Below, piece after piece: positions 18,689 through 31,329 of a stretch of DNA of 64,000 nucleotides. The stretch is from Candidatus Thorarchaeota archaeon (GTDB lineage: Archaea; Asgardarchaeota; Thorarchaeia; Thorarchaeales; Thorarchaeaceae), in assembly GCA_046758445.1 (NCBI GenBank), contig JBHIAE010000005.1, positions 1 through 64,000 on the forward strand, in the 5' to 3' direction. Numbering within the stretch: the first letter of the stretch is position 1; each line of letters begins with the position of its first letter. The notes under the pieces were generated by a model that had not been told where the DNA came from, made no database searches, and saw only the letters and a list, made by a program, of their open reading frames with translations. A program made the position numbers and the translations under genes.

Positions 18689-19741
18689 CTAGCCCTCTCT
18701 GGTCATTCTCTTGACGCTGTCAACAACCTCATGGGCCATCATCACAGCACCTATGAGCTCTATCTTGGGTTCCGTATCTGGTGCTCCAGGAGTGGCTGCT
18801 GAAACACGACCCATAGCGCGCCCCATGCTCTTGATTAGCGTAGTTAATGCGATCTGAGCAGATACATCCAATTTGCTACTCTCGACTTGGGAGATCAATT
18901 CGGCGAGATCTGAAATGACGCTGTCTGAAACCTCGGTTGCCGTTTCTGCTCTTCTTACGTAATCGCGAAACTTGGCCTCAGTTTCTGGCGCCGCTGTCGA
19001 TTCGGCAGCCAGTTTGAGATGAGCTACCTCAGACTGAAGATTGCTGATTGTCTGATCCTTGGTGGTGATGGTTCTGAGGAGTTCCTCCTCCCTTTCAGGA
19101 CTTGCTGCTGCTTCAGCCATCTTAGTCTGCATCTGGGCCATTGTCTTCTCTCTCTCAGAGATCTCAACCTTGATTGCATCGAGCTGAGCCTGTACAGCCG
19201 TGAGGGAGCTCTCTCTTTCTGTCAGAAACTCCTGTAGCTGTTTGTTCTCGCCTTCAAGCTTCTGGATATCAGCCTTCATGCTCTTCGCAGTGTCCTTAGC
19301 CTCCTTGAGGTCACTGCGGAGAGACACAAAATCAGGGTCCGGAGGAGATATGGTTCGCAGAGCCACTGTTCCAATGACGATAACCACTGCAACAACATAG
19401 AGTAGGCCAATGAACATCGACCCATACACAAAGTCAGTCAGGGCCTGGACTATTCCTACGAAATCCCTGTAGGAACCGAATTCAACGCCATCGATCCACC
19501 ACATGGAGCCAAAGCCAGCATAAAGTATCATGATGGACGCCACAGCCAAGCTTATGATGCCGCCTAAGACGAGTAGGTTACGTTTCAGGATGTCACGGGG
19601 CAGATGACGCTGGTACAACAACGCAATTATTCCAATGAACAAGAGAGGCAAGGCATAAGGGATCACCGCCACAAGATCTTGCATCGGATATTGGAAATCA
19701 ATGGCTGCACTGAAACCTGTTGACAAGTTGGGGTCGACCAT
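18689..19741 (-). CDS. Membrane-anchored coiled-coil protein
   Basis: N-terminal ~130 aa with 3-4 TM segments, then long heptad-rich region and helical C-terminal domain. Confidence 0.8.
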   Translation of the reverse strand: MVDPNLSTGFSAAIDFQYPMQDLVAVIPYALPLLFIGIIALLYQRHLPRDILKRNLLVLGGIISLAVASIMILYAGFGSMWWIDGVEFGSYRDFVGIVQALTDFVYGSMFIGLLYVVAVVIVIGTVALRTISPPDPDFVSLRSDLKEAKDTAKSMKADIQKLEGENKQLQEFLTERESSLTAVQAQLDAIKVEISEREKTMAQMQTKMAEAAASPEREEELLRTITTKDQTISNLQSEVAHLKLAAESTAAPETEAKFRDYVRRAETATEVSDSVISDLAELISQVESSKLDVSAQIALTTLIKSMGRAMGRVSAATPGAPDTEPKIELIGAVMMAHEVVDSVKRMTREG

Positions 19742-20247: not shown

Positions 20248-21528
20248 GTGGAGTTATGGCTGCTGATTCTGATAATCTTCTTCATTACCGTGCTATTGAT
20301 TGCGACACGGGCAGTTCATCATACATCAGCCGCATTAGTTGGGGCGGTATTAGCATCGATTGCCCTTATCACGAATGGGGTCCCCGATCAAGAAATCTTG
20401 GCCATGGTGCGTTTAGAGCCGATTCTTGTGATTGCCGGGATGACAGTAGTGGCTGAGGTGATGCGGGGTGCAGGCGTCTTTCAGTTTCTTGTGGTATATC
20501 TCATCCGGTTGACACGGGGGAATCCCAAGAAGCTATTCCTAATATTCTGCTTGCTAACCGCGGCTCTATCGACGGTGGTGTTGAATACCGTTGTGATATT
20601 GATAATGGGATACTTAGTGATTTTGACATGCCAGGCACTCGAGATTAGACTTCATGGGTTCCTACTTGGGAAAATGTTGGCGGTTGGCGCCGGTGGTGCG
20701 TTCACATTGATTGGCACCACATCGAATGTAATCATTGCTGATTACGCAGGATTCGGATTCTATTATTACATCACACGATTTGGCATATTAGCGTTAATAG
20801 TTATCACGGTGTCACTAGTCGCCGTTTTTCTAATGATTCGTCGTCAATTAACCGTAGAAGATTCAAAGACATCTGACCGTATGATGGACTTAGATCCTTG
20901 GACGATGGTACCAAATCGACGGTTGTTCTGGGTATACGCAGGATTCTTTTCCCTACTCATCGTAGCCTTTGTCCTCTTTCCTCAGCCATATGTTGTCGCC
21001 ATTGGGGGAATGATGGTCTTCATGACGGTCAGTCATGCTGATCCAGGGGCAAGTCTTCGCGACATAGAGTGGGACATCATCTTCTTCATTGGAGGGCTCT
21101 TCGTTCTGGCAGGCGCACTGGAACTTGTCGGAATTCTCAGTGTGATTTCAGACGTCATTCTTTCGGCAAGCGGCGGGCAATTGATACCTGCATCATTGAT
21201 GTTGCTTTTGGGAGCGTGGTTTGGAGCTTTCGTTATTGGTGGTTCACCCATAGCTGCGGTCTTTGCACCCCTTGCCGTCGATATGGCTACGGTCATGGGT
21301 TGGCCTATCGGCGTACGGGATCCACTATTTTGGGGCGTAGGATTTGGGGCCGCTCTGGGCGGTGTAGCAACACCGTTTGGTGCAGTACCATTGCTAGTTC
21401 TATCAATGGTTAGCTTCGAGAATTCAGAAATGTCATGGCACAGGTTTCTCATCATTGCAATACTGGTGAACATCATACAGATTGGATTTTGCTCAATCTA
21501 TATCATCCTCTTCGCACTACCTATATGA
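20248..21528 (+). CDS. ArsB/NhaD (IT superfamily) permease
   Basis: About 11-12 TM; GGAFTLIGTTSNVII and GAALGGVATPFG repeats, EWDIIFFIGGLFVL. Confidence 0.85.
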   Translation: MELWLLILIIFFITVLLIATRAVHHTSAALVGAVLASIALITNGVPDQEILAMVRLEPILVIAGMTVVAEVMRGAGVFQFLVVYLIRLTRGNPKKLFLIFCLLTAALSTVVLNTVVILIMGYLVILTCQALEIRLHGFLLGKMLAVGAGGAFTLIGTTSNVIIADYAGFGFYYYITRFGILALIVITVSLVAVFLMIRRQLTVEDSKTSDRMMDLDPWTMVPNRRLFWVYAGFFSLLIVAFVLFPQPYVVAIGGMMVFMTVSHADPGASLRDIEWDIIFFIGGLFVLAGALELVGILSVISDVILSASGGQLIPASLMLLLGAWFGAFVIGGSPIAAVFAPLAVDMATVMGWPIGVRDPLFWGVGFGAALGGVATPFGAVPLLVLSMVSFENSEMSWHRFLIIAILVNIIQIGFCSIYIILFALPI

Positions 21529-21696
21529 GCAAGTAGATGTCTCTCCGACACTCGTACAGAACTGCAGGTAAACCAATACTATGGCTACTCTAGAGCGTGA
21601 GTTGTCTTCGAGAAGTTTATTCTGGCGATAATGCCCTATGAGGAAACTACGACGTTCTGCCCCGGGGAGTTCACCGGGACAGAACACCCTTCTACT

Positions 21697-21987
21697 CTAT
21701 CTCTTCCACAACTCTGCCTTGAGCTTCTCGTGGTCCTCCACGATGGTCTTAAGACATTTGAACAGCCGACTTGCCTCATCGATCGAAAGAAGAAAGGCCC
21801 CCTTGACATCTCGGTCTTCACCGAGAGAGAGGCGAATCTTGCCGTCATTCACCCATCCCTCATCGGTCTTCTCTGGGGACTGGAGCTGAACTTCAAGCCA
21901 TGTTCTCCGTGTCGCACCTGTCTGGCGGTCATCGAAGAAGTGTTTGATCTGAAGTCGGCGTTCATAAATCCTAGGCTTATCACCCAT
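21697..21987 (-). CDS. Small hypothetical protein, possible PC4/Whirly-like beta4-alpha fold
   Basis: 96 aa, alternating beta-strand pattern followed by an amphipathic helix; GAAAG before ATG. Confidence 0.6.
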   Translation of the reverse strand: MGDKPRIYERRLQIKHFFDDRQTGATRRTWLEVQLQSPEKTDEGWVNDGKIRLSLGEDRDVKGAFLLSIDEASRLFKCLKTIVEDHEKLKAELWKR

Positions 21988-22175
21988 CTTTCAAAGCACC
22001 TCTATCAAGTAACAGGTCTTTGCACCTGTACCGCCTTCACATTCGCTTCTGGGAATATTTCTTCATTTCTCGGAAATGCCGAGCTATGTCTGTTTCCACG
22101 AACCTCCTATGGCCGTCGTACTCAAGAAAAGCCTTATCTGAAGAGCTGAGTCAATCGGGGCTGGCGGACGCTCAA

Positions 22176-25064
22176 ATGGACAAGAACCGTAGACTTACCA
22201 TCCAGAGATTTGCTTCGACAATCATCATCATGATGCTTGTATTACCGACGCCCTTGCTTATGGTTGAAGGGAGTACTCAAGAATCGGTATCTAGTTTGAT
22301 TATTGATCCGCGCTTGAACGCCGCGATGATGAACTCGAAGCAAGATGAGGTTCTTCCAATAGTCATTCAGTTCCCTGAAAGGTCTACACCCAACTCAATG
22401 GAACGTGCGATAGCCAGTCTTGGACTTGAGAGAGTTATCTTGCGTCATGTCTTCAGTTTCATACCGGTCGTTTCACTCTATGCTGGGGTTTCAGATATTG
22501 AGTCCCTGTCAACGTTGGAAGGAGTGTCCGGAATCGCCTTAGACACTATCAGGTCTGCAACCGCAGAGCCGAGCTTCGGCCATGAGAGTCTCAGCAATGG
22601 CGTTCATTATGAACACTTCACAGAAACGCTAGATGCAACAGGCATGTGGAGTCAAGGCTACTTTGGAAATGGTACAGTGGTGGCTGTCCTAGACACAGGC
22701 GCACAGAGGGACCACCCGGATCTTGAAGGTAAGATCGTTGGCTTTGAGGACTTGATAGGGACCGGAGTCCTTTCCTATGATGATAACGGACATGGAACAG
22801 CCTGCGCCTGGAATGTCGTCGGAACAGGAGCAGCCAGCGGAGGCAATTTTACAGGAGTGGCCCCTGGTGCGAAACTGTTGATTGTGAAAGTCCTAGATCA
22901 GGATGGGCAGGGATCGGATTCTATCATAGCGCAGGGAATAGAGTACGCAGTTTCGCAAGGCGTCGATGTCATCAGCCTCAGCCTTGGGGGGCCTTGGGCT
23001 GACACTCAGCTCATAATCGACCCTTCGGTGCAGGCTGTCAGAGAGGCTGTTTCCGCTGGTGTCGCAGTGGTCGTGGCCTCCGGGAACTCTGGCCCAGCAC
23101 CATTCTCAGTATCCTCGCCTGGGTATGTCGATGAAGTCATAACCGTGGGAGCATCTTCAGAGTCGACCGGAGTAACGGCATTCAGCAGTCGTGGACCGGT
23201 AGAACGTCAGAACACGGTCCCCCGCGGTCGGTTCGCCAAACCTGATATCCTGGCTCCGGGCTCAGACGTGATTTCTGGACGTTCACACAGCTCCAACACT
23301 CTTGAGTATCCAATCTATGAGGAGCCGACCTATGGCCTAAGCTATACTCAGTGGTCTGGAACGTCTGCATCAACAGCACAGATAGCTGGGCTCGTGGCAC
23401 TCCTGAAACAGAAGGACGGTAGCCTCACTCCACTCCAGGGAAAACTGGCTCTGATGGCGACCGCAAAGGACCTAGGTGCGGACTCAATGGAGCAGGGTTG
23501 GGGATTAGCAAATGTCACAGCAGCTTCCAATCTGCTAAACTCTTCCTCGGGACAGCTTACTCTGATGACTCCAAGAAGATATCCGACTCTTCCAGGAGCT
23601 GCGACAGTACTAGTCATAGGGGAAGACCGGCCTGACCAAAACATCACCATTATGTCCACCACCAATCTTGGAACCGCAGAGATCGTGCAGTCTGGAAACG
23701 CGAGTCAGTTCGTGAAGACTCAGGATGGAACGTTCACTGTCAATGCTGGCTATTCCTTCGTCACTGTTGGATTGGATATGCCCGATATGCTACCTCTGAA
23801 CGCGACAGGACTCTACACTGGAACGCTAACTCTGGTTTCAGGAGGTATGAACGTAACAGCAATTGACCTCGAGCTCACAATTACGACGTACGGCGGGAGA
23901 CTGCTTGCTGACATGGCTCATCACGACGTTGACGTAGATGATCCAAGCTTCTACAGCTACTTCCAAGACTATCTTAGACAGCAGGGCGTAGTCTTGGAAG
24001 AGTTTGGTAGTAGTGCCATCTTCATGCCCGACAGTATCGATAGTGGCGATCTCGCAACCGCAGAAACATTCATGATCATGGACACTGAGCTTCCTTATGG
24101 ACAGTCTGAGATTGATGCCCTGCACCAGTTCGTTCTGGATGGGGGGACCTTGCTGGTCCTCTCAGAATTCTACAACACCACGAGTGAGGAGGCACTCTTC
24201 GGTATTGACTCCTACAACGAGATTCTTCAGCCCTACGGGATTCAGTGTGAGAGATTCGGCATAGGCGAAGGCCCTGATGATCTCACCGGGGAGTTGTATG
24301 GACTGGACTATGGAGGTGCAGTTGAGTCAGATCCACTAATGAACGGCGTTAGCAACCTGTACATCTTATGGGGTAGCACTCTAAGTGTCAATCCATCAGT
24401 CGCTGGAGCAAGAGGGCTCTTCTGGTACGATCAGGCCAAAACTCACGCTATTGTTGCTGCTGCGGAGGCAGGTAAAGGGAAGGTCATAGTGGTTTCGGAT
24501 GGTTCTACCCTATATGATGATGTTCTTTATGATGCCATCCAGGGAGACGCAGACAATCTAAGATTGTTGCGCAATATCGCAGGCGCCATCATACCAACTA
24601 CGCCTAGGATATTCGATGTGGAGCTAAACACACGCGAAATAGGCGAGCCAGCAAACCTGACAACATTTGTCTTTGACGACGATCTAGACGAAGTGACCAT
24701 CACAATAGTCGGTCCTAGTGGCTCCACTATCCCCGGCGTGGTCACTGAGAGGCTAGGATACCTGTTCACCACTGAGTTCACTCTCGAGAGTGGTGGCTTT
24801 TACGATGTCACCATAGTCGCAACAGATGCCGATGAGAACGTGAAGACATTTCAGAAGACATTCTTGGTTCCGATTGATCCAGCTGATGACGTATTCATAA
24901 CGACTGTAACCTTCGGCCTTCTTGCTGTGGTAGGAGTATCGCTCATCTACGTCATTGCCATCAGGTTTGGAGGTAGACGAAGAAGGCCTAGAAGACCTGT
25001 ATCTCTGCCCGATGAGTATGGTCCAGAACCTGATGAGTGGGGTCCTCCACCGACTATCGAATAG
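22176..25064 (+). CDS. Membrane-anchored S8 subtilase with site-1-protease-like architecture
   Basis: Signal peptide from ATG 22176; VLDTG, GHGT, SGNSG, SGTS catalytic motifs; Ig-like and GATase-like (DUF4350/GldG-type) domains; C-terminal TM and basic Pro-rich tail. Confidence 0.9.
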   Translation: MDKNRRLTIQRFASTIIIMMLVLPTPLLMVEGSTQESVSSLIIDPRLNAAMMNSKQDEVLPIVIQFPERSTPNSMERAIASLGLERVILRHVFSFIPVVSLYAGVSDIESLSTLEGVSGIALDTIRSATAEPSFGHESLSNGVHYEHFTETLDATGMWSQGYFGNGTVVAVLDTGAQRDHPDLEGKIVGFEDLIGTGVLSYDDNGHGTACAWNVVGTGAASGGNFTGVAPGAKLLIVKVLDQDGQGSDSIIAQGIEYAVSQGVDVISLSLGGPWADTQLIIDPSVQAVREAVSAGVAVVVASGNSGPAPFSVSSPGYVDEVITVGASSESTGVTAFSSRGPVERQNTVPRGRFAKPDILAPGSDVISGRSHSSNTLEYPIYEEPTYGLSYTQWSGTSASTAQIAGLVALLKQKDGSLTPLQGKLALMATAKDLGADSMEQGWGLANVTAASNLLNSSSGQLTLMTPRRYPTLPGAATVLVIGEDRPDQNITIMSTTNLGTAEIVQSGNASQFVKTQDGTFTVNAGYSFVTVGLDMPDMLPLNATGLYTGTLTLVSGGMNVTAIDLELTITTYGGRLLADMAHHDVDVDDPSFYSYFQDYLRQQGVVLEEFGSSAIFMPDSIDSGDLATAETFMIMDTELPYGQSEIDALHQFVLDGGTLLVLSEFYNTTSEEALFGIDSYNEILQPYGIQCERFGIGEGPDDLTGELYGLDYGGAVESDPLMNGVSNLYILWGSTLSVNPSVAGARGLFWYDQAKTHAIVAAAEAGKGKVIVVSDGSTLYDDVLYDAIQGDADNLRLLRNIAGAIIPTTPRIFDVELNTREIGEPANLTTFVFDDDLDEVTITIVGPSGSTIPGVVTERLGYLFTTEFTLESGGFYDVTIVATDADENVKTFQKTFLVPIDPADDVFITTVTFGLLAVVGVSLIYVIAIRFGGRRRRPRRPVSLPDEYGPEPDEWGPPPTIE

Positions 25065-26337
25065 GCCCTAGGGTTCGTTCAAGCAATGACAGTAGCTGAC
25101 CGTGCCTGCTCTTCAGGAGAGGCTGCTCTATGAGCTTCGCACCAGTTTCCACACGTTTGAGAATCTCGTAACCAATACGTCCTCCCATCCGAGGCCCCAG
25201 CACCTGTCCTCCAATCAAGCGGCCTTCTTCTGTGGTGACGAGTGCCACTTTCGTTGACTCGGAGAGATCCTCTAGGTAGGAAACAGCAACACCAATTCCC
25301 AAATCCCTTGCAGTAGTGGATGAGTGGCCTATGCATACAATGTCAGTCCCAAAGATGTGGTCGTACTGCAGGCGCAGCGGAGTATCATCGTATATCTTTT
25401 CACTGCCAACTGCGGCTACTCCAGCCTGCCTGCCTGCTCGAGCCGCTGTGCTTCCTACTGGCATAAGGATCGGGCCACCTGAGAGTGGATCTATCATCTC
25501 AATGCAATCTCCGACGGCAAAGACACCACTGGTTTCGGTTTCCATTCTGCTGTTGACCGGAACTCCTCCCAACGAGCCGAGCTTCAGACCCAACTTCTTG
25601 GCAAGGATGGTGTTTGGCCTGACTCCTGTCATGAATAGGACTGAGTCAGCCGCTATCTCTTTGCCGCCCACCTCAATACCGACGGCCTTATCGGTTCCAA
25701 GAACTCTTGAGGGTGCCGACCCCAGATGAAGATGTATCTGTCTTGGTATTCTTGAAAGAAGCTCTTCGCTCATAGATTCCTCCAACTGCCTCCGCATTAA
25801 TCGCGACCTAATCACGATGTGAACATCCTTCCCCATCTTGAAAAGACGCTCGGCCGTTTCTAGGCCACTGAAGCCTGCTCCTACTATGACGATCGATCTT
25901 TGGTCGTTGAGGATCCTTCCAATCTGAGTTGTATCAGCCATGGATTGGATTGTGTAGACGCCTGGAAGGTCAACGCCGGGTATGTCCGGAACGGCCGGGA
26001 TGCCTCCTGTGGCAATGATTAATCTATCAAACTTGATTGTTGAGGTCTGGTCTTCACCCAATACCAAGTCAATTGTCTTTTTGCTGAGATCTCCACCAAC
26101 CACACTTGTCCCTGAATGAATCTGAATCTGCTTTGCTGCAAGTACTTCTGTAGACCAGTCTGGAATGTACAGTTCTCGAGTATCAGGGTCTTCCAATGCC
26201 AATGCAGAACCCGGTTTCTTATGAGCAGATACCTTCTCTTCTGTAACCAGGGTTATTTCCGCCCTTGAATCAAATGTTCTTGCGGCCAACGCAGCAGCGG
26301 CCCCTCCGGGTCCGTAACCGACAATCACAATCTTCAA
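25054..26337 (-). CDS. FAD/NAD(P)-dependent oxidoreductase (NADH oxidase/CoADR-like fold, no redox Cys)
   Basis: GYGPGG, ATGG, GAGFSGLE, GVFAVGDC; the usual redox-Cys position reads HKKPG. Confidence 0.85.
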   Translation of the reverse strand: MKIVIVGYGPGGAAAALAARTFDSRAEITLVTEEKVSAHKKPGSALALEDPDTRELYIPDWSTEVLAAKQIQIHSGTSVVGGDLSKKTIDLVLGEDQTSTIKFDRLIIATGGIPAVPDIPGVDLPGVYTIQSMADTTQIGRILNDQRSIVIVGAGFSGLETAERLFKMGKDVHIVIRSRLMRRQLEESMSEELLSRIPRQIHLHLGSAPSRVLGTDKAVGIEVGGKEIAADSVLFMTGVRPNTILAKKLGLKLGSLGGVPVNSRMETETSGVFAVGDCIEMIDPLSGGPILMPVGSTAARAGRQAGVAAVGSEKIYDDTPLRLQYDHIFGTDIVCIGHSSTTARDLGIGVAVSYLEDLSESTKVALVTTEEGRLIGGQVLGPRMGGRIGYEILKRVETGAKLIEQPLLKSRHGQLLSLLERTLGPIR

Positions 26338-29300
26338 TCGACCACACTTCCCTTCCTGCTTTCTCTGATACGAGGCACAAGGTAGACGACAACTATCAAT
26401 GCTGCGGCACCTATTCCAATGATCAAGGCCATGGAGTTGTCTTCAACTATCTGAAGCGTACCGACATGTAACTCTACTGTTACGCCCGCTAGGCTAACTG
26501 CTGCAGCATAGACTTCGTAGTTGCCTGGGACCAGCGCAGATGGAGAAACGTCTATCTCATATAATCCAAGGTTTCCCGTGAGACTCAGATTGAGGGGAAG
26601 GCCTGAAACGGGGCGAAAGCTAATGTAGACAGCTTGTGCCAAAGCATAGCCCTCCACAACCACTTCGCCCGTAACACGTTCAGAGATGAATAGACCGACC
26701 CGGACAACATAGCTGTCCAAGGTCGCACTGACAATCCTGAGATTGCCCAGACCTTGAGATAGCATCACAGGATGGAGTATTGACCAATAGTCTGAATCGC
26801 TCACGTTGAAGAGCACACTATGAAGTATCTCGTACTCCTCAATATTCACAACGTACTGAAACGATGCTACATTGGTTCCCGTGCTCACGCCGGACTCTAC
26901 TTCTCCAAACTCCCCATCCACTATGCTCCAGGCGATTGAGAGGTTTGCAGGTGCATCATCTCGATCGGATATCTCGATGCTGACATTGAATGAATCTAAT
27001 GATGGCTCAACAGTGATGTTCTCTACGAGGGGCCTCCACTGGTTGTGCAAGCGGGTATTGTTAGTCTGATCGACAGGAGAAAGCGTAGCATTGCTCGTAG
27101 TAACGGACACGTTTCCTCTTTTGTATGGGTTGCCCCTGTCAACACTGAGAAACACCGTGTCGTCGTCTGTCCACCAATCGGCTGACAAAGCGGACGAAAC
27201 GTACATGCTTCCTAACCATTCATACACGGATGCTGAGCCCATAGTGACATTGACAACCACATCATAGCCGCTTGGTCCCGAACTGATGTCTTCATCAGAG
27301 TCCAAGTGAAGCGTCAGGACATTTGTTCCTGAGTAATCAGGTGTTCCTCTTGACGACACAGCGAAGGCTTGGTGAGTTTTGGTCTGATAGTACTTCACAC
27401 TTCTAATGTCCAGCTCTGCGTCAATTGACAAGTCTACTGGTGAACTCAGCACATCGTCTATACCTACCCAATCTTCAACTACCATTCCGCTCTGAAGTGC
27501 CATATCTAGAACATGCCTCACGGACCAGACCGAATCGATAAGACCGAATCCCCAGTCATCGAGGGGTGGTGAATAGTGCGAAGTCAGACTGCCTGCACCC
27601 ATAGTCAACGCTGTAAGGTCATTCCATGGAGAAGAGTCGGGGGATGCCTGTCGTATTAATGCCAGCAGACCTGCAACATGAGGAGCAGCCATGCTTGTTC
27701 CTGCTCTCGAAATCCATAATCCTTGTATGTTCTGAGATGCTGCCAGTACGTTGGAACCCGGTGCGGCCACGGTTACTTTCTTTACACCATCAACTCGCGG
27801 GCCTCTGCTGGATCCGGTGTCTATGTTATGAGCCCCCTCGTTATAATTGACAACAGTAACAGCGAGGTCCGCTGTGCTTGGAGAGCTGATTGTTCTTGTA
27901 TTATCAGTCTGACTCAAGAACTGAAGGTTGGTCAAATGCCAGTTGCCGTCCCATGCAAATAGGTCCACAGTTACATTCCCTCCCCCTGGGTTTGTGAGTC
28001 CGACGTTCCAGTTCCCATTCGTCCAGTTATGGTCATCTTCTGATATCTGAATGAGCAGATTGTTCATTCCTCTCAGACTAACGTCAGCAAATGCATAAGC
28101 ATGGAGGCTAGGTGTTGCGATCACCTGGGAGCTACCTGCTATTGTTGAGAATGCACCAAAGTCTATGGGGTCTCCACTCGGAGGAATTAGAAACACATGC
28201 TCATCTTGGTCCTCGCTATGCCAAAGAAAGCTCAGGGCTGATGCATCCGGGGGATTTGTAACATCAAGAACAGCGCTCGAGTTCGCACCTGAGCCAACTT
28301 CGAGGTGGGCATGTTTCGGTCTATTCCCGAGATTTCCAGCGGCCACAGTGCTGATTGTGCCGTACTTCATGAATGCCTCTGTGATAGCCAGATCCTCCAA
28401 ATCCGTGCCATCAAGAAATCCGATATAGCTCGAGAATGACATGTTGATGATATCGGCGCCATACTCTACTGCAAAGTAGATTGCGTCCACGATATCGCTA
28501 GACCTCAAAGGACTCTTTACTACAATGAGGTCGGCACCCGGAGCCACACCCAGAAACGATGTGAAACCAGGCTGTCCGCCAACTGCTGTGGATGCTATAT
28601 GGGTGCCGTGGCCCTGTGGGTCTCCTATCTGATATGCTTGGGTAGTCAGGTTCACTCCGCGGAAATAGACTTGGCTGTTCTCTTGGTCATAGAGAACCTT
28701 CACCTTTGGCTCTCCCAGTACCACTACATCTTCAGATGGGATATCTGCCACGCTGTTGTTATTCGCATCGATTCCCCCGAGCCATAGGTCTCCTTCGTTG
28801 ACATTGAATTGACCATCATCACCTGTGTCTATGAACATGTACTCATTATTGATCTCAATGGTGGCTGGAAACTGTTTGTCGATATGATTGATGGGTCCCT
28901 CGTCGGGATCTGCGATGGAGTCACCATCTATGTCTACGTAGTAGTCAGAGCCCAACGTGACCACATGATACGGTCCTGAGCTTTGCCTCCATAGGCTTGG
29001 GTGTGCCCATTCTACACCGAGATCAATGACGGCCACTGTTGCGCCGGAGCCATTGATTGTGGTTCCATCCTTCTTCAGATTCGCCCAGACATCAGGTGCA
29101 CCCGTGGCCGGCACTGAAGACTGAAGAGAGGGGTAGAACTGTTTCTCGCCTGATGTAGCTCTCACCAGACCCACGCTTGACAAGGCATTGAGTGACGCAA
29201 TGCCCGAAACCCTTGCAGAATAGATTCTGCCCACACTGATGACTGATCTCCCCATTCTCTCAAACTTTACACCAAGTGACTCAGCAACGATGAGTTGTTC

Positions 29301-29522
29301 GGGTGACAGTTCTTCTTCAAACTGAAGAAGTGCCCTGTGGCTAAACTCATCTGGAAATATCTGGTTACCAACAGATGACGATGAGAGCATCCTCATCAGT
29401 TGTGGCTCAATTGAAATGGGATTGCTCTCTTGAATCACCATTGAATACTGGCGCGCAGCTGGCGCAGCTGGTATAAAGAGGGCAACAAGGAGGAGTGCCA
29501 ATATCAAATGGCGTCTGAACAT
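26334..29522 (-). CDS. Large secreted, membrane-anchored S8 serine peptidase with inserted domains
   Basis: Signal peptide; VIDLG, GHGTHIAS, AAGNLG, SSRGP, GTSMAAPHVAG; C-terminal TM helix. Confidence 0.9.
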   Translation of the reverse strand: MFRRHLILALLLVALFIPAAPAARQYSMVIQESNPISIEPQLMRMLSSSSVGNQIFPDEFSHRALLQFEEELSPEQLIVAESLGVKFERMGRSVISVGRIYSARVSGIASLNALSSVGLVRATSGEKQFYPSLQSSVPATGAPDVWANLKKDGTTINGSGATVAVIDLGVEWAHPSLWRQSSGPYHVVTLGSDYYVDIDGDSIADPDEGPINHIDKQFPATIEINNEYMFIDTGDDGQFNVNEGDLWLGGIDANNNSVADIPSEDVVVLGEPKVKVLYDQENSQVYFRGVNLTTQAYQIGDPQGHGTHIASTAVGGQPGFTSFLGVAPGADLIVVKSPLRSSDIVDAIYFAVEYGADIINMSFSSYIGFLDGTDLEDLAITEAFMKYGTISTVAAGNLGNRPKHAHLEVGSGANSSAVLDVTNPPDASALSFLWHSEDQDEHVFLIPPSGDPIDFGAFSTIAGSSQVIATPSLHAYAFADVSLRGMNNLLIQISEDDHNWTNGNWNVGLTNPGGGNVTVDLFAWDGNWHLTNLQFLSQTDNTRTISSPSTADLAVTVVNYNEGAHNIDTGSSRGPRVDGVKKVTVAAPGSNVLAASQNIQGLWISRAGTSMAAPHVAGLLALIRQASPDSSPWNDLTALTMGAGSLTSHYSPPLDDWGFGLIDSVWSVRHVLDMALQSGMVVEDWVGIDDVLSSPVDLSIDAELDIRSVKYYQTKTHQAFAVSSRGTPDYSGTNVLTLHLDSDEDISSGPSGYDVVVNVTMGSASVYEWLGSMYVSSALSADWWTDDDTVFLSVDRGNPYKRGNVSVTTSNATLSPVDQTNNTRLHNQWRPLVENITVEPSLDSFNVSIEISDRDDAPANLSIAWSIVDGEFGEVESGVSTGTNVASFQYVVNIEEYEILHSVLFNVSDSDYWSILHPVMLSQGLGNLRIVSATLDSYVVRVGLFISERVTGEVVVEGYALAQAVYISFRPVSGLPLNLSLTGNLGLYEIDVSPSALVPGNYEVYAAAVSLAGVTVELHVGTLQIVEDNSMALIIGIGAAALIVVVYLVPRIRESRKGSVVD

Positions 29523-29664
29523 CGTCTTACCTCGGCGGTGGGTTCTAAAGTCGTTCTCTCCATGGTCCTGATATGCTTTTGCGTGACTGAAGTAATCCCC
29601 GTCCCCCTTTGATAGCTCTTATAACAGGAGCAGACGGAGCAAAACACACACGGACGTGCTCTCA

Positions 29665-31329
29665 ATGACTTCTGTGGAGGAAATCAAAGAGCTATTAGAG
29701 AAGGGCGAATCTAGAAACATGGAGTTCAAACGGAACCTCTCGAAAGTAGACATGAAGCCGGAGCGGCGTCAGAAGTTGGTCACCCGTGTAAAGTACATGA
29801 CGTGTGAAAGCCCTTTCGAGGGCCTCTTCCTTTTGGGCATTGAGGACATTGGGGGGAAGAAATGGGAGGTCTTCGGTCTCTCGGAACCACGACTCGAAAC
29901 AGCCGAGGGAGTGCTTCATGAGATATGCAGGGAGGCAGAAGTAGAGATTGTTGAGGAGGAGAGAATTGAGACTGACAGAGGCCTTGTTGGGCAATATCTC
30001 CTGAAGAGAATCGCTGCGCTCGAGATCAAGGAAACTTGTTCGGTCAATGTCGCGGGCCGAGTCAATTCAGGCAAGTCAACTCTCATTGGTTCAATTGTCA
30101 CTGGAACTCCAGACAATGGTGCAGGAAGCTCGAGGTCATTTCTCCTCAAACACCCACAAGAGATCACGCGTGGTCAGACAGCAGACATTCATCTTGCCTT
30201 CATGGGCTTCAGCTCTGAAGGTGAGAGCATACACTTGGAGAATCCTCTAGATAAGGCTGAATCAGGAAGAGTTCTTGACACTTCTACAAAGATACTCACC
30301 TTCTTCGATGCGCCAGGTCACCGTGAGTACAGCAAGACGATGATCAGAAGCATCTTGGGGGCAGACGCACAGTATGGACTTGTGTTAGTCCCTGGTCCCG
30401 ACGAAGCCCAACTAATCAGAAGTGAGGAGAGCCGCACGGGACTTCGTCGACTAGATGACATCACCCGTGAACACTTGATTCTCATGACTAGTCAGGGGAC
30501 ACCGTTCATCGTTGCAATCTCAAAGGTAGACAAGACTAGTCCAGAAGACCTGCTTCTTGTCACTGATGTCATTCGTGACACGCTGAAGGAGATTGGCAAG
30601 ATCCCTGTCAACGTCAAGACAAGGGATGAGATTCCAGCCTTGGTTGGAGAAATCGAACATGGAATCATAGTCCCGATCCTCGAGTTCGCCGCCACCGAAG
30701 AGTCCTCCATCGACTTCTTCACAGATCTCTTCAGAAATCTGCCATCGAACTCAAGGCATGTCGATCCATCGAAACCTGCACGCGCCTATGTAGACAAGGT
30801 CTATAGAGGAATAAGAGGAACGAACGTCGTGGTCACGGGAACAGTCAGATCGGGAGTGTTCAAGAAGGGACAGACGCTATTCATCGGACCAGACGAGAAT
30901 GGAAACATGCAGGAAGGTAGGTTGTTCAGCATCGAGATGTTCAAGAAAAGAATCAGCACAGCAAAAGCAGGGGACCTGTTTGGTTTTGACATCAAGGATG
31001 TGGACAAGCACAAGATTCGAAGAGGACAGCTAATCACAGATCCAGATGATGACATCAGAAGCTGTCGCACATTTGATGCAAACATAGTTGTGACTCGTCA
31101 TCCTACAAGGATCTCAGTGGGGTACTCACCAGTCTTTCAGAGCCACACAATCCAACATACGGTTACGCTCAAGAGGATTTTCGACGCTGATTATCTCAGC
31201 GTAGGTGACTTTGCTCGCGTAACACTCGAGTTCATGTCTCTTCCTGAAGCAATAGAAGTCGGAGACAAGATTGTACTTAGAGAGGCCAACACACGGGCTA
31301 TCGGAACTGTTGTGGAGGTACTCAACTAG
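29665..31329 (+). CDS. GTPBP1/2-like translational GTPase (COG5258)
   Basis: N-terminal GESRNMEFK domain; G1 GRVNSGKST, HPQEITRGQT, G3 DAPGH, G4 SKVD; EF-Tu domains II/III (HPTRISVGYSPV). Confidence 0.9.
   Translation: MTSVEEIKELLEKGESRNMEFKRNLSKVDMKPERRQKLVTRVKYMTCESPFEGLFLLGIEDIGGKKWEVFGLSEPRLETAEGVLHEICREAEVEIVEEERIETDRGLVGQYLLKRIAALEIKETCSVNVAGRVNSGKSTLIGSIVTGTPDNGAGSSRSFLLKHPQEITRGQTADIHLAFMGFSSEGESIHLENPLDKAESGRVLDTSTKILTFFDAPGHREYSKTMIRSILGADAQYGLVLVPGPDEAQLIRSEESRTGLRRLDDITREHLILMTSQGTPFIVAISKVDKTSPEDLLLVTDVIRDTLKEIGKIPVNVKTRDEIPALVGEIEHGIIVPILEFAATEESSIDFFTDLFRNLPSNSRHVDPSKPARAYVDKVYRGIRGTNVVVTGTVRSGVFKKGQTLFIGPDENGNMQEGRLFSIEMFKKRISTAKAGDLFGFDIKDVDKHKIRRGQLITDPDDDIRSCRTFDANIVVTRHPTRISVGYSPVFQSHTIQHTVTLKRIFDADYLSVGDFARVTLEFMSLPEAIEVGDKIVLREANTRAIGTVVEVLN

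Follow-up and report, generated by a model that had tools for sequence, protein, structure and literature searches.

Eukaryotic site-1 protease (S1P / SKI-1 / MBTPS1) triggers the regulated intramembrane proteolysis of SREBP and ATF6, among other factors of this kind, and a gene on the stretch of Thorarchaeote DNA analysed here (the window, 64,000 nucleotides) raises the question of whether its product, a subtilase that the initial annotation took to have the full layout of S1P, is a forerunner or a functional counterpart of that enzyme. In a subtilase survey the S1P lineage (SBT7) was suggested to have originated in eukaryotes (PMC6713707), and a text search of the literature returned no paper connecting Asgard archaea with S1P. 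If Asgard proteins joining a peptidase S8 domain to a GIFT domain (S8-GIFT) were indeed S1P forerunners, another core secretory-pathway enzyme would be traceable to the archaeal host, and a pre-sterol, pre-ER-stress role of S1P would become testable in cultured Asgard archaea.

Domain organization of the archaeal subtilase

The open reading frame extends from an ATG at 22176 to a stop codon ending at 25064, as initially annotated. A full-length AF2 model of the product (pLDDT 85.7, pTM 0.78) showed, in order, a hydrophobic N-terminal helix, a prodomain, the S8 domain, a beta-sandwich, a GIFT domain, a second Ig-like beta-sandwich, a transmembrane (TM) helix and a disordered tail. The features are as follows:

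22176..25064, + strand, whole gene encoding a 962-aa membrane-anchored S8-GIFT subtilase (P0001; ORF and translation)
22176..22274, + strand, N-terminal signal peptide or anchor, residues 1-33 (basic n-region, then a hydrophobic stretch)
22293..22565, + strand, I9-like alpha/beta prodomain, residues about 40-130 (AF2; Tk-SP propeptide alignment)
22608..23549, + strand, peptidase S8 catalytic domain, residues 145-458 (Pfam, AF2)
22692-22694, + strand, D173 codon, S8 triad
22791-22793, + strand, H206 codon, S8 triad
23085-23087, + strand, N304 codon, oxyanion Asn
23364-23366, + strand, S397 codon, S8 triad
23553..23891, + strand, beta-sandwich immediately after S8, residues 460-572 (AF2; alignments to Tk-SP and S1P)
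23895..24593, + strand, GIFT domain with a non-catalytic GATase1-like fold, residues 574-806 (AF2)
24603..24872, + strand, second Ig-like beta-sandwich ("stalk"), residues 810-899 (AF2 strands 811-898)
24888..24971, + strand, TM helix, residues 905-932 (top hydropathy peak at 911; AF2 helix)
24972..25064, + strand, cytoplasmic tail (family tail alignment)

All parts named in the initial annotation (signal peptide, prodomain, S8, Ig-like and GATase-like domains, TM helix and basic tail) were recovered from the ORF, Pfam and AF2; the second Ig-like domain (810-899) had not been listed there. The signal peptide region contains the second-highest hydropathy peak of the protein, at residue 12, within a helix (2-22) of low pLDDT. 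The prodomain superposes on the Tk-SP propeptide (3afg_B), with the alignment starting at model residue 38, and is followed by a disordered linker (131-143). Pfam placed the S8 match at residues 164-443 with 186 bits, and D173, H206, N304 and S397 were invariant among 63 homologues; by triad order, oxyanion Asn and subtilisin fold the protein belongs to peptidase family S8 (subtilases, S8A). In S1P the oxyanion Asn is N338. The beta-sandwich at 460-572 occupies the place of the Tk-SP beta-jelly-roll and of the S1P "P-like" / MBTPS1_3rd domain. Both S8 and beta-sandwich are closest to those of Tk-SP from Thermococcus kodakarensis (PDB 3AFG, 9UES), an ordinary archaeal subtilase, and with S8 followed by a beta-jelly-roll of high sequence similarity the protein is Tk-SP-like over this part. 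The solved Tk-SP chains, however, stop after the beta-jelly-roll; nothing in them aligns past about model residue 561-562, and they offer no counterpart to the GIFT domain, stalk, TM anchor or tail.

In family members the stalk gave weak matches to Filamin, Big_13 and PKD, and hhalign found no match between the stalk and S1P. The tail runs from a basic patch (RRRRPRRP) through an acidic stretch to a motif conserved at the very C-terminus, (D/E)EW...PP(S/T)I(E), in which P959 is nearly invariant in the family. A protease that served feeding alone would have no need of such a motif, which may point to a role in regulation or sorting.

Comparison with S1P

The S1P strings quoted in the initial annotation proved genuine, being present in 8uwc_A (691-736) and in 14 vertebrate S1P sequences, and both hhalign and BLASTP matched them with their archaeal counterparts in the stated order. 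BLASTP against S1P gave a single HSP of 575 columns with 27% identity (E 2e-30). With the GIFT part alone BLASTP still returned E 2e-6, and hhalign of the two GIFT domains gave E 2e-7 to 4e-7; on these sequence comparisons similarity to S1P outside the S8 domain goes beyond chance and the GIFT domains of the archaeal family and S1P are homologous. Two other kinds of marker did not hold up. The EQGxG motif and the non-Met GTS serine motif occur in both proteins, as had been pointed out, yet they are not peculiar to this pair and were rejected as shared derived characters: QGxG and the lack of the Met are common to many other S8 proteins in the alignment, and the motifs turn up again in Streptomyces, Tolypothrix and Deinococcus as well as in further Asgard clades. 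A small insertion before KPD was likewise discarded as an S1P marker, a Deinococcus S8 having it too.

At the structural level, a Foldseek search of the PDB with the post-catalytic part gave S1P as the top match, aligned over residues 3-354 of the post-catalytic model. S1P was also the sole solved structure aligning through S8, beta-sandwich and GIFT together (585 residues), the alignment with 8uw8_A spanning model residues 145-807. Among 7.7 million cluster representatives of the ESM Atlas, S1P and the archaeal family were reciprocal nearest non-self clusters. In the Atlas fold search with the whole model S1P ranked first, although this ranking is weak on its own since its lead over other multidomain subtilases was slight (TM 0.50 against 0.46). 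Sequence searches of the PDB with the single post-catalytic sequence gave no match, and with the family profile weak matches only. A search of the window's own genome with the post-catalytic part of S1P returned this gene as its sole match, at an E value (0.116) too weak to count alone.

S1P (PDB 8UW8, 8UWC, 9CSD) shares with the archaeal protein the type-I topology, the signal peptide and prodomain, the order S8, beta-sandwich/Ig-like, GIFT, TM and short basic tail (AF2 compared with the S1P Pfam domains), and a colinear GIFT block around (M/V)D(T/S)E..Y..EI..L...V..G..L.V.S(E/D)(F/W)YNT. It differs in having a linker of roughly 120 residues where the archaeal protein has the additional Ig-like stalk, in its many cysteines as against 2, and in its SPRING, SREBP and ATF6-type partners, of which the archaeal protein shows no sign. 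Pfam detected neither MBTP1_N nor MBTPS1_3rd in this protein or among the families listed for 56 family members, and hhalign of the Ig domain against that of S1P gave no sequence-level match (E 0.09-0.3).

Closer inspection of the GIFT region qualified the proposed link to MBTPS1. The region adopts a flavodoxin-like alpha/beta fold superposing on solved GIFT domains, and its best Pfam scores were to DUF4350 (29.9 bits) and GldG (ABC_transp_aux), both of which were matched by all 56 family members. MBTPS1_4th (PF23090) was matched at E<0.1 by 49 of the 56 (best E-value 8.4e-6), but here it scored 15.4-18.3 bits, under the Pfam gathering cut-off of 27, and was outscored by DUF4350 and ABC_transp_aux. 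GIFT domains are also found in IFT52, which is cytoplasmic, and OST48/Wbp1 (PDB 5FMR, 5FMS, 6S7O, 6EZN), proteins that lack a protease domain and whose GIFT domains share 12-19% sequence identity with the archaeal one, while prokaryotic DUF4350 / GldG (ABC_transp_aux) proteins are described in Pfam as stand-alone or ABC-transport-associated, without S8 fusion. S1P stands as the top structural match of the post-catalytic part and matches its GIFT profile, but the archaeal GIFT domain is at least as similar to IFT52, OST48 and DUF4350 as to S1P.

Distribution and kinship to S1P

The S8-GIFT fusion was found in 168 of 301 sampled Asgard genomes, and the named members are all Asgard, in a profile search that was seeded with the Thorarchaeota family and that non-Asgard S8-GIFT proteins may have escaped. 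Close homologues number about 140, in Thor-, Loki- and Promethearchaeota, and the protein is a member of an orthologous group present throughout Thorarchaeota, within an Asgard-wide superfamily of S8-beta-sandwich-GIFT-TM architecture. Even without a link to S1P, this is an uncharacterised phylum-wide family of tethered surface proteases with a conserved cytoplasmic tail and synteny, which bears on feeding or envelope remodelling in protein-degrading sediment archaea.

The initial annotation had proposed a prokaryotic sister or ancestor of S1P. In S8 trees (IQ-TREE) the backbone was unresolved, and all trees were computed under LG+G4 and are hence prone to long-branch effects. S1P did not nest within the Thorarchaeota clade, and the addition of eight invertebrate S1P sequences made the S1P stem no shorter (1.19). 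A position of S1P beside a Deinococcus S8 in FastTree became a polytomy under IQ-TREE, and a grouping of S1P with P0191 in the three-domain tree was flagged as a meeting of long branches and is given no weight. Together with the closeness of S8 and beta-sandwich to Tk-SP and the likeness of the GIFT domain to those of IFT52, OST48 and DUF4350, these results speak against the Thorarchaeota family being specifically the sister of S1P, and it is only at the level of the entire S8-GIFT superfamily that S1P ancestry is plausible.

At this level, two histories of the fused architecture were weighed. In the first, the S8-beta-sandwich-GIFT-TM unit had a single origin, in Asgard archaea, and eukaryotic S1P is its descendant. 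S1P would then count among the eukaryotic signature proteins of archaeal origin without having been recognised as one: the archaeal host would have brought a tethered protease of its surface into the endomembrane system, where it was later recruited to SREBP/ATF6-type signalling. On this view OST48 and IFT52 might likewise have obtained their GIFT domains from Asgard GIFT modules. In the second, GIFT/DUF4350 modules, which are common and mobile, were joined to subtilases in two separate events, one in Asgard archaea and one on the eukaryotic stem, and the likeness is convergent. AU tests, with S1P represented by vertebrate or bilaterian sequences, did not reject S1P joined to the Thorarchaeota clade (p 0.06 with vertebrate S1P only, p 0.20 with bilaterian S1P) or to all S8-GIFT (p 0.22), which speaks against convergence, as does the reciprocal Atlas match. 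Against the S1P GIFT profile, GIFT domains of non-S8 proteins scored about 10 bits below S8-linked ones, placing the latter nearer to S1P, although the sequences compared are kin from three or four clades and hence not independent. The order S8, beta-sandwich, GIFT and TM was met only in Asgard archaea and S1P, and the fused architecture may plausibly go back to one ancestor, because the Asgard proteins are the sole prokaryotic group found with the S1P ectodomain order and share its GIFT subtype. Descent of S1P from a single Asgard fusion, and with it common ancestry of the architecture, is accordingly put forward as a real possibility somewhat short of an even chance, and independent assembly as an alternative only slightly less likely.

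Gene neighbourhood and predicted function

The gene is a single conserved orthologue in phylum-deep synteny and adjoins a second TM-anchored subtilase. A 172-codon ORF also lies upstream. Neither the CitMHS transporter gene immediately upstream nor the gene for an EF-Tu-like GTPase downstream had a match in 63 related Thorarchaeota loci (flanks of only about 3 kb), and they were for that reason not counted as conserved context. The conserved Thorarchaeota neighbours carried no functional information. One locus, from a different clade, gave a hint of peptide supply.

Taken as a whole, the protein is probably a surface-anchored type-I subtilisin-like endoprotease of a Thorarchaeote. Its synthesis would yield a zymogen, with signal peptide and I9-like prodomain, that is exported and presumably cleaves off the prodomain itself, in the manner of Tk-SP and other subtilases. 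At the cell surface, four stacked ectodomains (Tk-SP-like S8, Tk-SP-like beta-sandwich, non-catalytic GIFT and Ig-like stalk) would be carried on one TM helix, with the short conserved tail on the cytoplasmic side. On the model of S1P, the most likely place of the GIFT domain is against S8, where it could shape access to the cleft or hold a partner or glycan. The role envisaged is peptide supply, or turnover or processing of envelope proteins.

The specificity to be expected differs from that of S1P, in which D218, Q282 and S307 form an acidic P4-Arg pocket giving R-x-hydrophobic-x specificity (PMC11231238). In the BLASTP alignment S307 corresponds to S269 and D218 to D173, but Q282 is replaced by the near-invariant G244, the usual subtilisin Gly, so that the protein appears to lack an S1P-type P4-Arg pocket and would be expected to cleave proteins outside or on the surface of the cell with the fairly broad specificity of a subtilisin rather than at R-x-x-L. 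This bears on whether the protein could be a functional S1P counterpart, making the first extracellular cut in a membrane-tethered regulator that an M50 site-2 protease then releases, in an archaeal cascade of regulated intramembrane proteolysis. Topology and domain order are as in S1P, the conserved tail suggests regulation, and the genome has three M50 genes, although M50 is uninformative, being present in all 14 control genomes. Neither an M50 gene nor a tethered transcription factor, by contrast, lies in the conserved gene cluster, the S8 domain most resembles the Tk-SP / subtilisin type of broad specificity, and the undetected MBTP1_N prodomain and MBTPS1_3rd Ig families, like the Gly at the Q282 position, argue the same way. 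Such a counterpart is considered very improbable, and the S1P/S2P-type signalling suggested initially is not borne out, since neither S2P nor tethered transcription factors could be connected with the gene.

A further alternative to a feeding protease would be an enzyme dedicated to maturing or shedding a small set of envelope proteins, such as S-layer proteins, adhesins or the second subtilase encoded next to it. The single orthologue kept in synteny beside that subtilase, the conserved tail and the tethering of the enzyme, instead of its secretion, would fit this role. On the other hand, the analysis turned up no candidate substrate, the subtilisin-like pocket would favour broad specificity, and tethered feeding proteases are common among archaea; a dedicated maturase or sheddase is thus judged unlikely, though less so than an S1P counterpart.

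Gene, domain layout and topology

The archaeal protein encoded at 22176-25064 (+) is a subtilase of the type of Thermococcus kodakarensis subtilisin-like protease (Tk-SP) that is anchored in the membrane and also carries a GIFT domain and a stalk, a new architecture in a known enzyme class. Its reading frame has 962 codons and starts with ATG; initiation at a TTG or ATG farther upstream would lengthen the protein by at most 52 residues, while homologues are mostly 960-970 aa and their alignment begins at the ATG at 22176. The Pfam Peptidase_S8 domain is complete (residues 164-443, 186 bits), and D173, H206, N304 and S397 are invariant among 63 aligned homologues, which predicts an active enzyme. 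With family alignments as input, AlphaFold2 gave confident models, with pLDDT 86 and pTM 0.78 for the whole protein and pLDDT 89 and pTM 0.86 for the post-catalytic part.

Parts of the archaeal protein in the AlphaFold2 model
N-terminus: hydrophobic helix
Residues about 45-127: alpha/beta prodomain, then a disordered linker
Residues 145-458: S8 domain
Residues 460-572: beta-sandwich
Residues 574-806: alpha/beta domain (GIFT)
Residues 810-899: second Ig-like sandwich
Residues 905-932: TM helix
C-terminus: disordered tail of 30 residues

The two top hydropathy peaks lie at the N-terminus and at residue 911, and all 10 N-x-S/T sequons fall in the predicted ectodomain (4.8 expected). The predicted topology fits a tethered ectoprotease. 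Together, the modelled parts, hydropathy and sequon placement bear out the anatomy proposed in the initial annotation, except that its list lacked the second Ig-like domain. The cytoplasmic tail (24972-25061) carries a basic patch, an acidic stretch with EW and a terminal PP(S/T)I(E), conserved across the Thor family as (D/E)EW...PP(S/T)I(E) at the extreme C-terminus; tail comparison showed the motif to be absent from more distant Asgard relatives. Such conservation hints at a cytoplasmic sorting or binding signal, or at regulation.

Similarity to eukaryotic site-1 protease

The post-catalytic profile matched the site-1 protease (S1P) chains 8uwc_A and 8uw8_A, yielding S1P residues 691-736; this 46-residue stretch served as query to gather vertebrate S1P proteins, and an invertebrate fragment as query for insect, mollusc, brachiopod and chelicerate S1P. 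The S1P strings quoted in the initial annotation were found in real S1P sequences (PDB chain and vertebrate S1P), and their claimed order held: hhalign of two full-length alignments gave a single colinear alignment of 506 columns from the S8 start into the GIFT domain, and BLASTP of the archaeal protein with S1P gave one 575-column HSP (27% identity, E 2e-30). The signal persisted without S8 (E 4e-6 and probability 87% for the post-catalytic profile compared with S1P), between GIFT profiles (E 2e-7 with the vertebrate and 4e-7 with the bilaterian S1P profile) and in BLASTP of the GIFT parts alone (E 2e-6). The beta-sandwich of S1P holds the same position as the archaeal one and the two superpose; profile comparison of the sandwiches found no significant sequence similarity (E 0.09-0.3). 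The archaeal layout matches the cryo-EM description of S1P, in which S8 is followed by a beta-sandwich called "P-like" (479-616) and then by a GIFT subdomain (617-998) (PMC11231238). The motifs put forward as shared, EQGxG and a non-Met GTS serine motif, are not exclusive to S1P and the archaeal protein.

Identity of the GIFT domain

Behind S8, Pfam gave weak matches to four related GATase1-like/GIFT families.

Pfam matches in the GIFT region of the archaeal protein, and family members matched
DUF4350: 29.9 bits (cut-off 30.4); 56/56
ABC_transp_aux: 19.9 bits; 56/56
MBTPS1_4th: 15.4 bits (cut-off 27); 49/56
IFT52_GIFT: 12.9 bits; 52/56

None of the 56 members matched MBTPS1_3rd or MBTP1_N. By raw score, therefore, the C-terminal domain is a GIFT domain that stands no nearer to S1P than it does to the remaining GIFT families. 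A GIFT subtype common to S1P and the Asgard fusions fits a further comparison, in which S8-attached and non-S8 proteins matched the Thor GIFT profile equally well (medians 45.3 and 45.7 bits): against the S1P-GIFT HMM, medians were 13.8-14.7 bits for S8-attached GIFT and 3.3-4.8 bits for non-S8 GIFT (Mann-Whitney p 8e-5 and 2e-5, values that are optimistic because the sequences are related). In ESM Atlas language-model features, the closest non-self clusters to the archaeal protein were nine S1P clusters (up to 0.92), followed by bacterial multidomain subtilases (≤0.84), and the nearest non-S1P cluster to S1P was a Thorarchaeota cluster (0.89; plant S1P cluster, 0.87). This proximity is a lead, not proof.

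Distribution of S8-GIFT fusions

Among 1.84 billion representatives, searched exhaustively by profile, 29 proteins were found to combine S8 with a long GIFT match, and all named ones are Asgard (Thor, Loki, Hel, Heimdall, Odin, Baldr, Ran, Asgardarchaeia and Hermod). One of the other types, which is 1240 aa long and has a zinc ribbon at its C-terminus, had matches in 168 of the 301 genomes from the window's phylum (68/90 good-quality genomes, 49/70 genera). The window's genome encodes a second paralogue of 1456 aa (contig C15, L087:2030-6400) with GIFT at about 1058-1230, distant from S8, so the fusion exists in several forms within this one genome. There is perhaps a third gene, for a subtilase of 671 aa whose GIFT match is weak (16.6 bits; contig C5:73608-74339).

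Relationship of the S8 domains

The S8 domain of S1P scored 103 bits against Bacillus subtilisins and 80 bits against Tk-SP. In one phmmer run a Streptomyces plasmid subtilase matched it at 126 bits, Odin-type Asgard S8-GIFT proteins at 108-116 bits and the Thor protein at 86 bits; within its own genome the Thor protease gene was the best S1P match by a narrow margin (79.6 vs 76.5 bits). Two Streptomyces plasmid subtilases ranked first (126 bits) and fourth (112 bits), and no GIFT domain was detected in either. These proteins, of about 1125 aa (L081:1838-5215 and L082:1817-5191), adjoin sigma-factor genes.

Maximum-likelihood S8 trees (LG+G4), with S1P sampled from vertebrates and invertebrates, put S1P in a polytomy with Asgard and bacterial clades, at the end of a long stem (1.18-1.19); the placement was the same with vertebrate S1P alone and with invertebrates added. 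AU tests neither support nor reject grouping S1P with the Thor clade (p 0.06 and 0.20) or with all S8-GIFT proteins (p 0.22), the free tree leading each constrained grouping by 14-16 log-likelihood units. When S8, sandwich and GIFT were combined in one tree, S1P fell outside the strongly supported Thor clade, weakly attached to another long branch. The proposal of a prokaryotic sister or ancestor of S1P survives in part: of the prokaryotic groups found here, the Asgard-wide superfamily holding the Thor protein looks most like S1P, but the Thor family is probably not specifically its sister. Common descent of the fused architecture in Asgard S8-GIFT proteins and S1P is plausible, falling somewhat short of probable. 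A subtilase survey proposed that the S1P lineage, there SBT7, arose in eukaryotes (PMC6713707), and text searches of the literature found no paper linking Asgard archaea to S1P/MBTPS1 and none on GIFT domains in Asgard archaea.

Putative function and gene neighbourhood

In S1P, Q282 binds Arg (PMC11231238). In the BLASTP alignment S269 and D173 of the archaeal protein correspond to S307 and D218 of S1P, and the Q282 position is G244 in the Thor family, Gly being usual in subtilisins; this Gly, with the closeness to Tk-SP, suggests broad specificity and not the motif of S1P.

Most of the 63 related Thor loci keep the same gene order around the protease gene.

Conserved neighbours of the protease gene
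18689-19741 (-): TM and coiled-coil protein, 350 aa, N-terminal TM helices and long coiled coil; upstream, 43/63 loci
21631-22149 (+): Cys-rich 172-codon ORF without Pfam family; upstream, 42/63 loci (tblastn)
25054-26337 (-): Pyr_redox_2 oxidoreductase (flavoprotein); downstream, 59/63 loci
26334-29522 (-): second TM-anchored subtilase, 1062 aa; downstream, 54/63 loci

Because tblastn finds matches in the corresponding position of 42 loci (identity 37-84% among the matches listed), the 172-codon ORF is probably a real small gene; it stops 27 bases before the protease start and is possibly co-transcribed with it. The Pyr_redox_2 gene overlaps the protease gene by 11 bases at the 3' ends and keeps this place in 59 loci; no functional link to the protease is evident. 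The second subtilase, whose gene is convergent with the S8-GIFT gene, has, besides its signal peptide, an S8 domain interrupted by large insertions, a C-terminal TM helix and a short basic tail. A CitMHS transporter gene (20248-21528) sits in the window between the coiled-coil gene and the cluster, and the gene at 29656-31329 (+) encodes an EF-Tu-like GTPase of 557 aa, in which all three EF-Tu domains are present and the N-terminus is extended by about 125 residues.

No conserved neighbour in the 63 loci points to intramembrane proteolysis or a tethered transcription factor. The genome has M50 genes, but M50 is universal and its presence is therefore not informative on an S1P/S2P-type role. 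An S1P-like signalling role for the Thor protein, as suggested in the initial annotation, is unlikely.

In another archaeon, the S8-GIFT gene at L090:6001-8835 (GCA_976602455.1), whose product belongs to an S8 clade holding a Heimdallarchaeota member, adjoins the genes for a substrate-binding protein, an M14 carboxypeptidase and a complete oligopeptide ABC transporter of the Opp type. The transporter and carboxypeptidase fit peptide scavenging at that locus.
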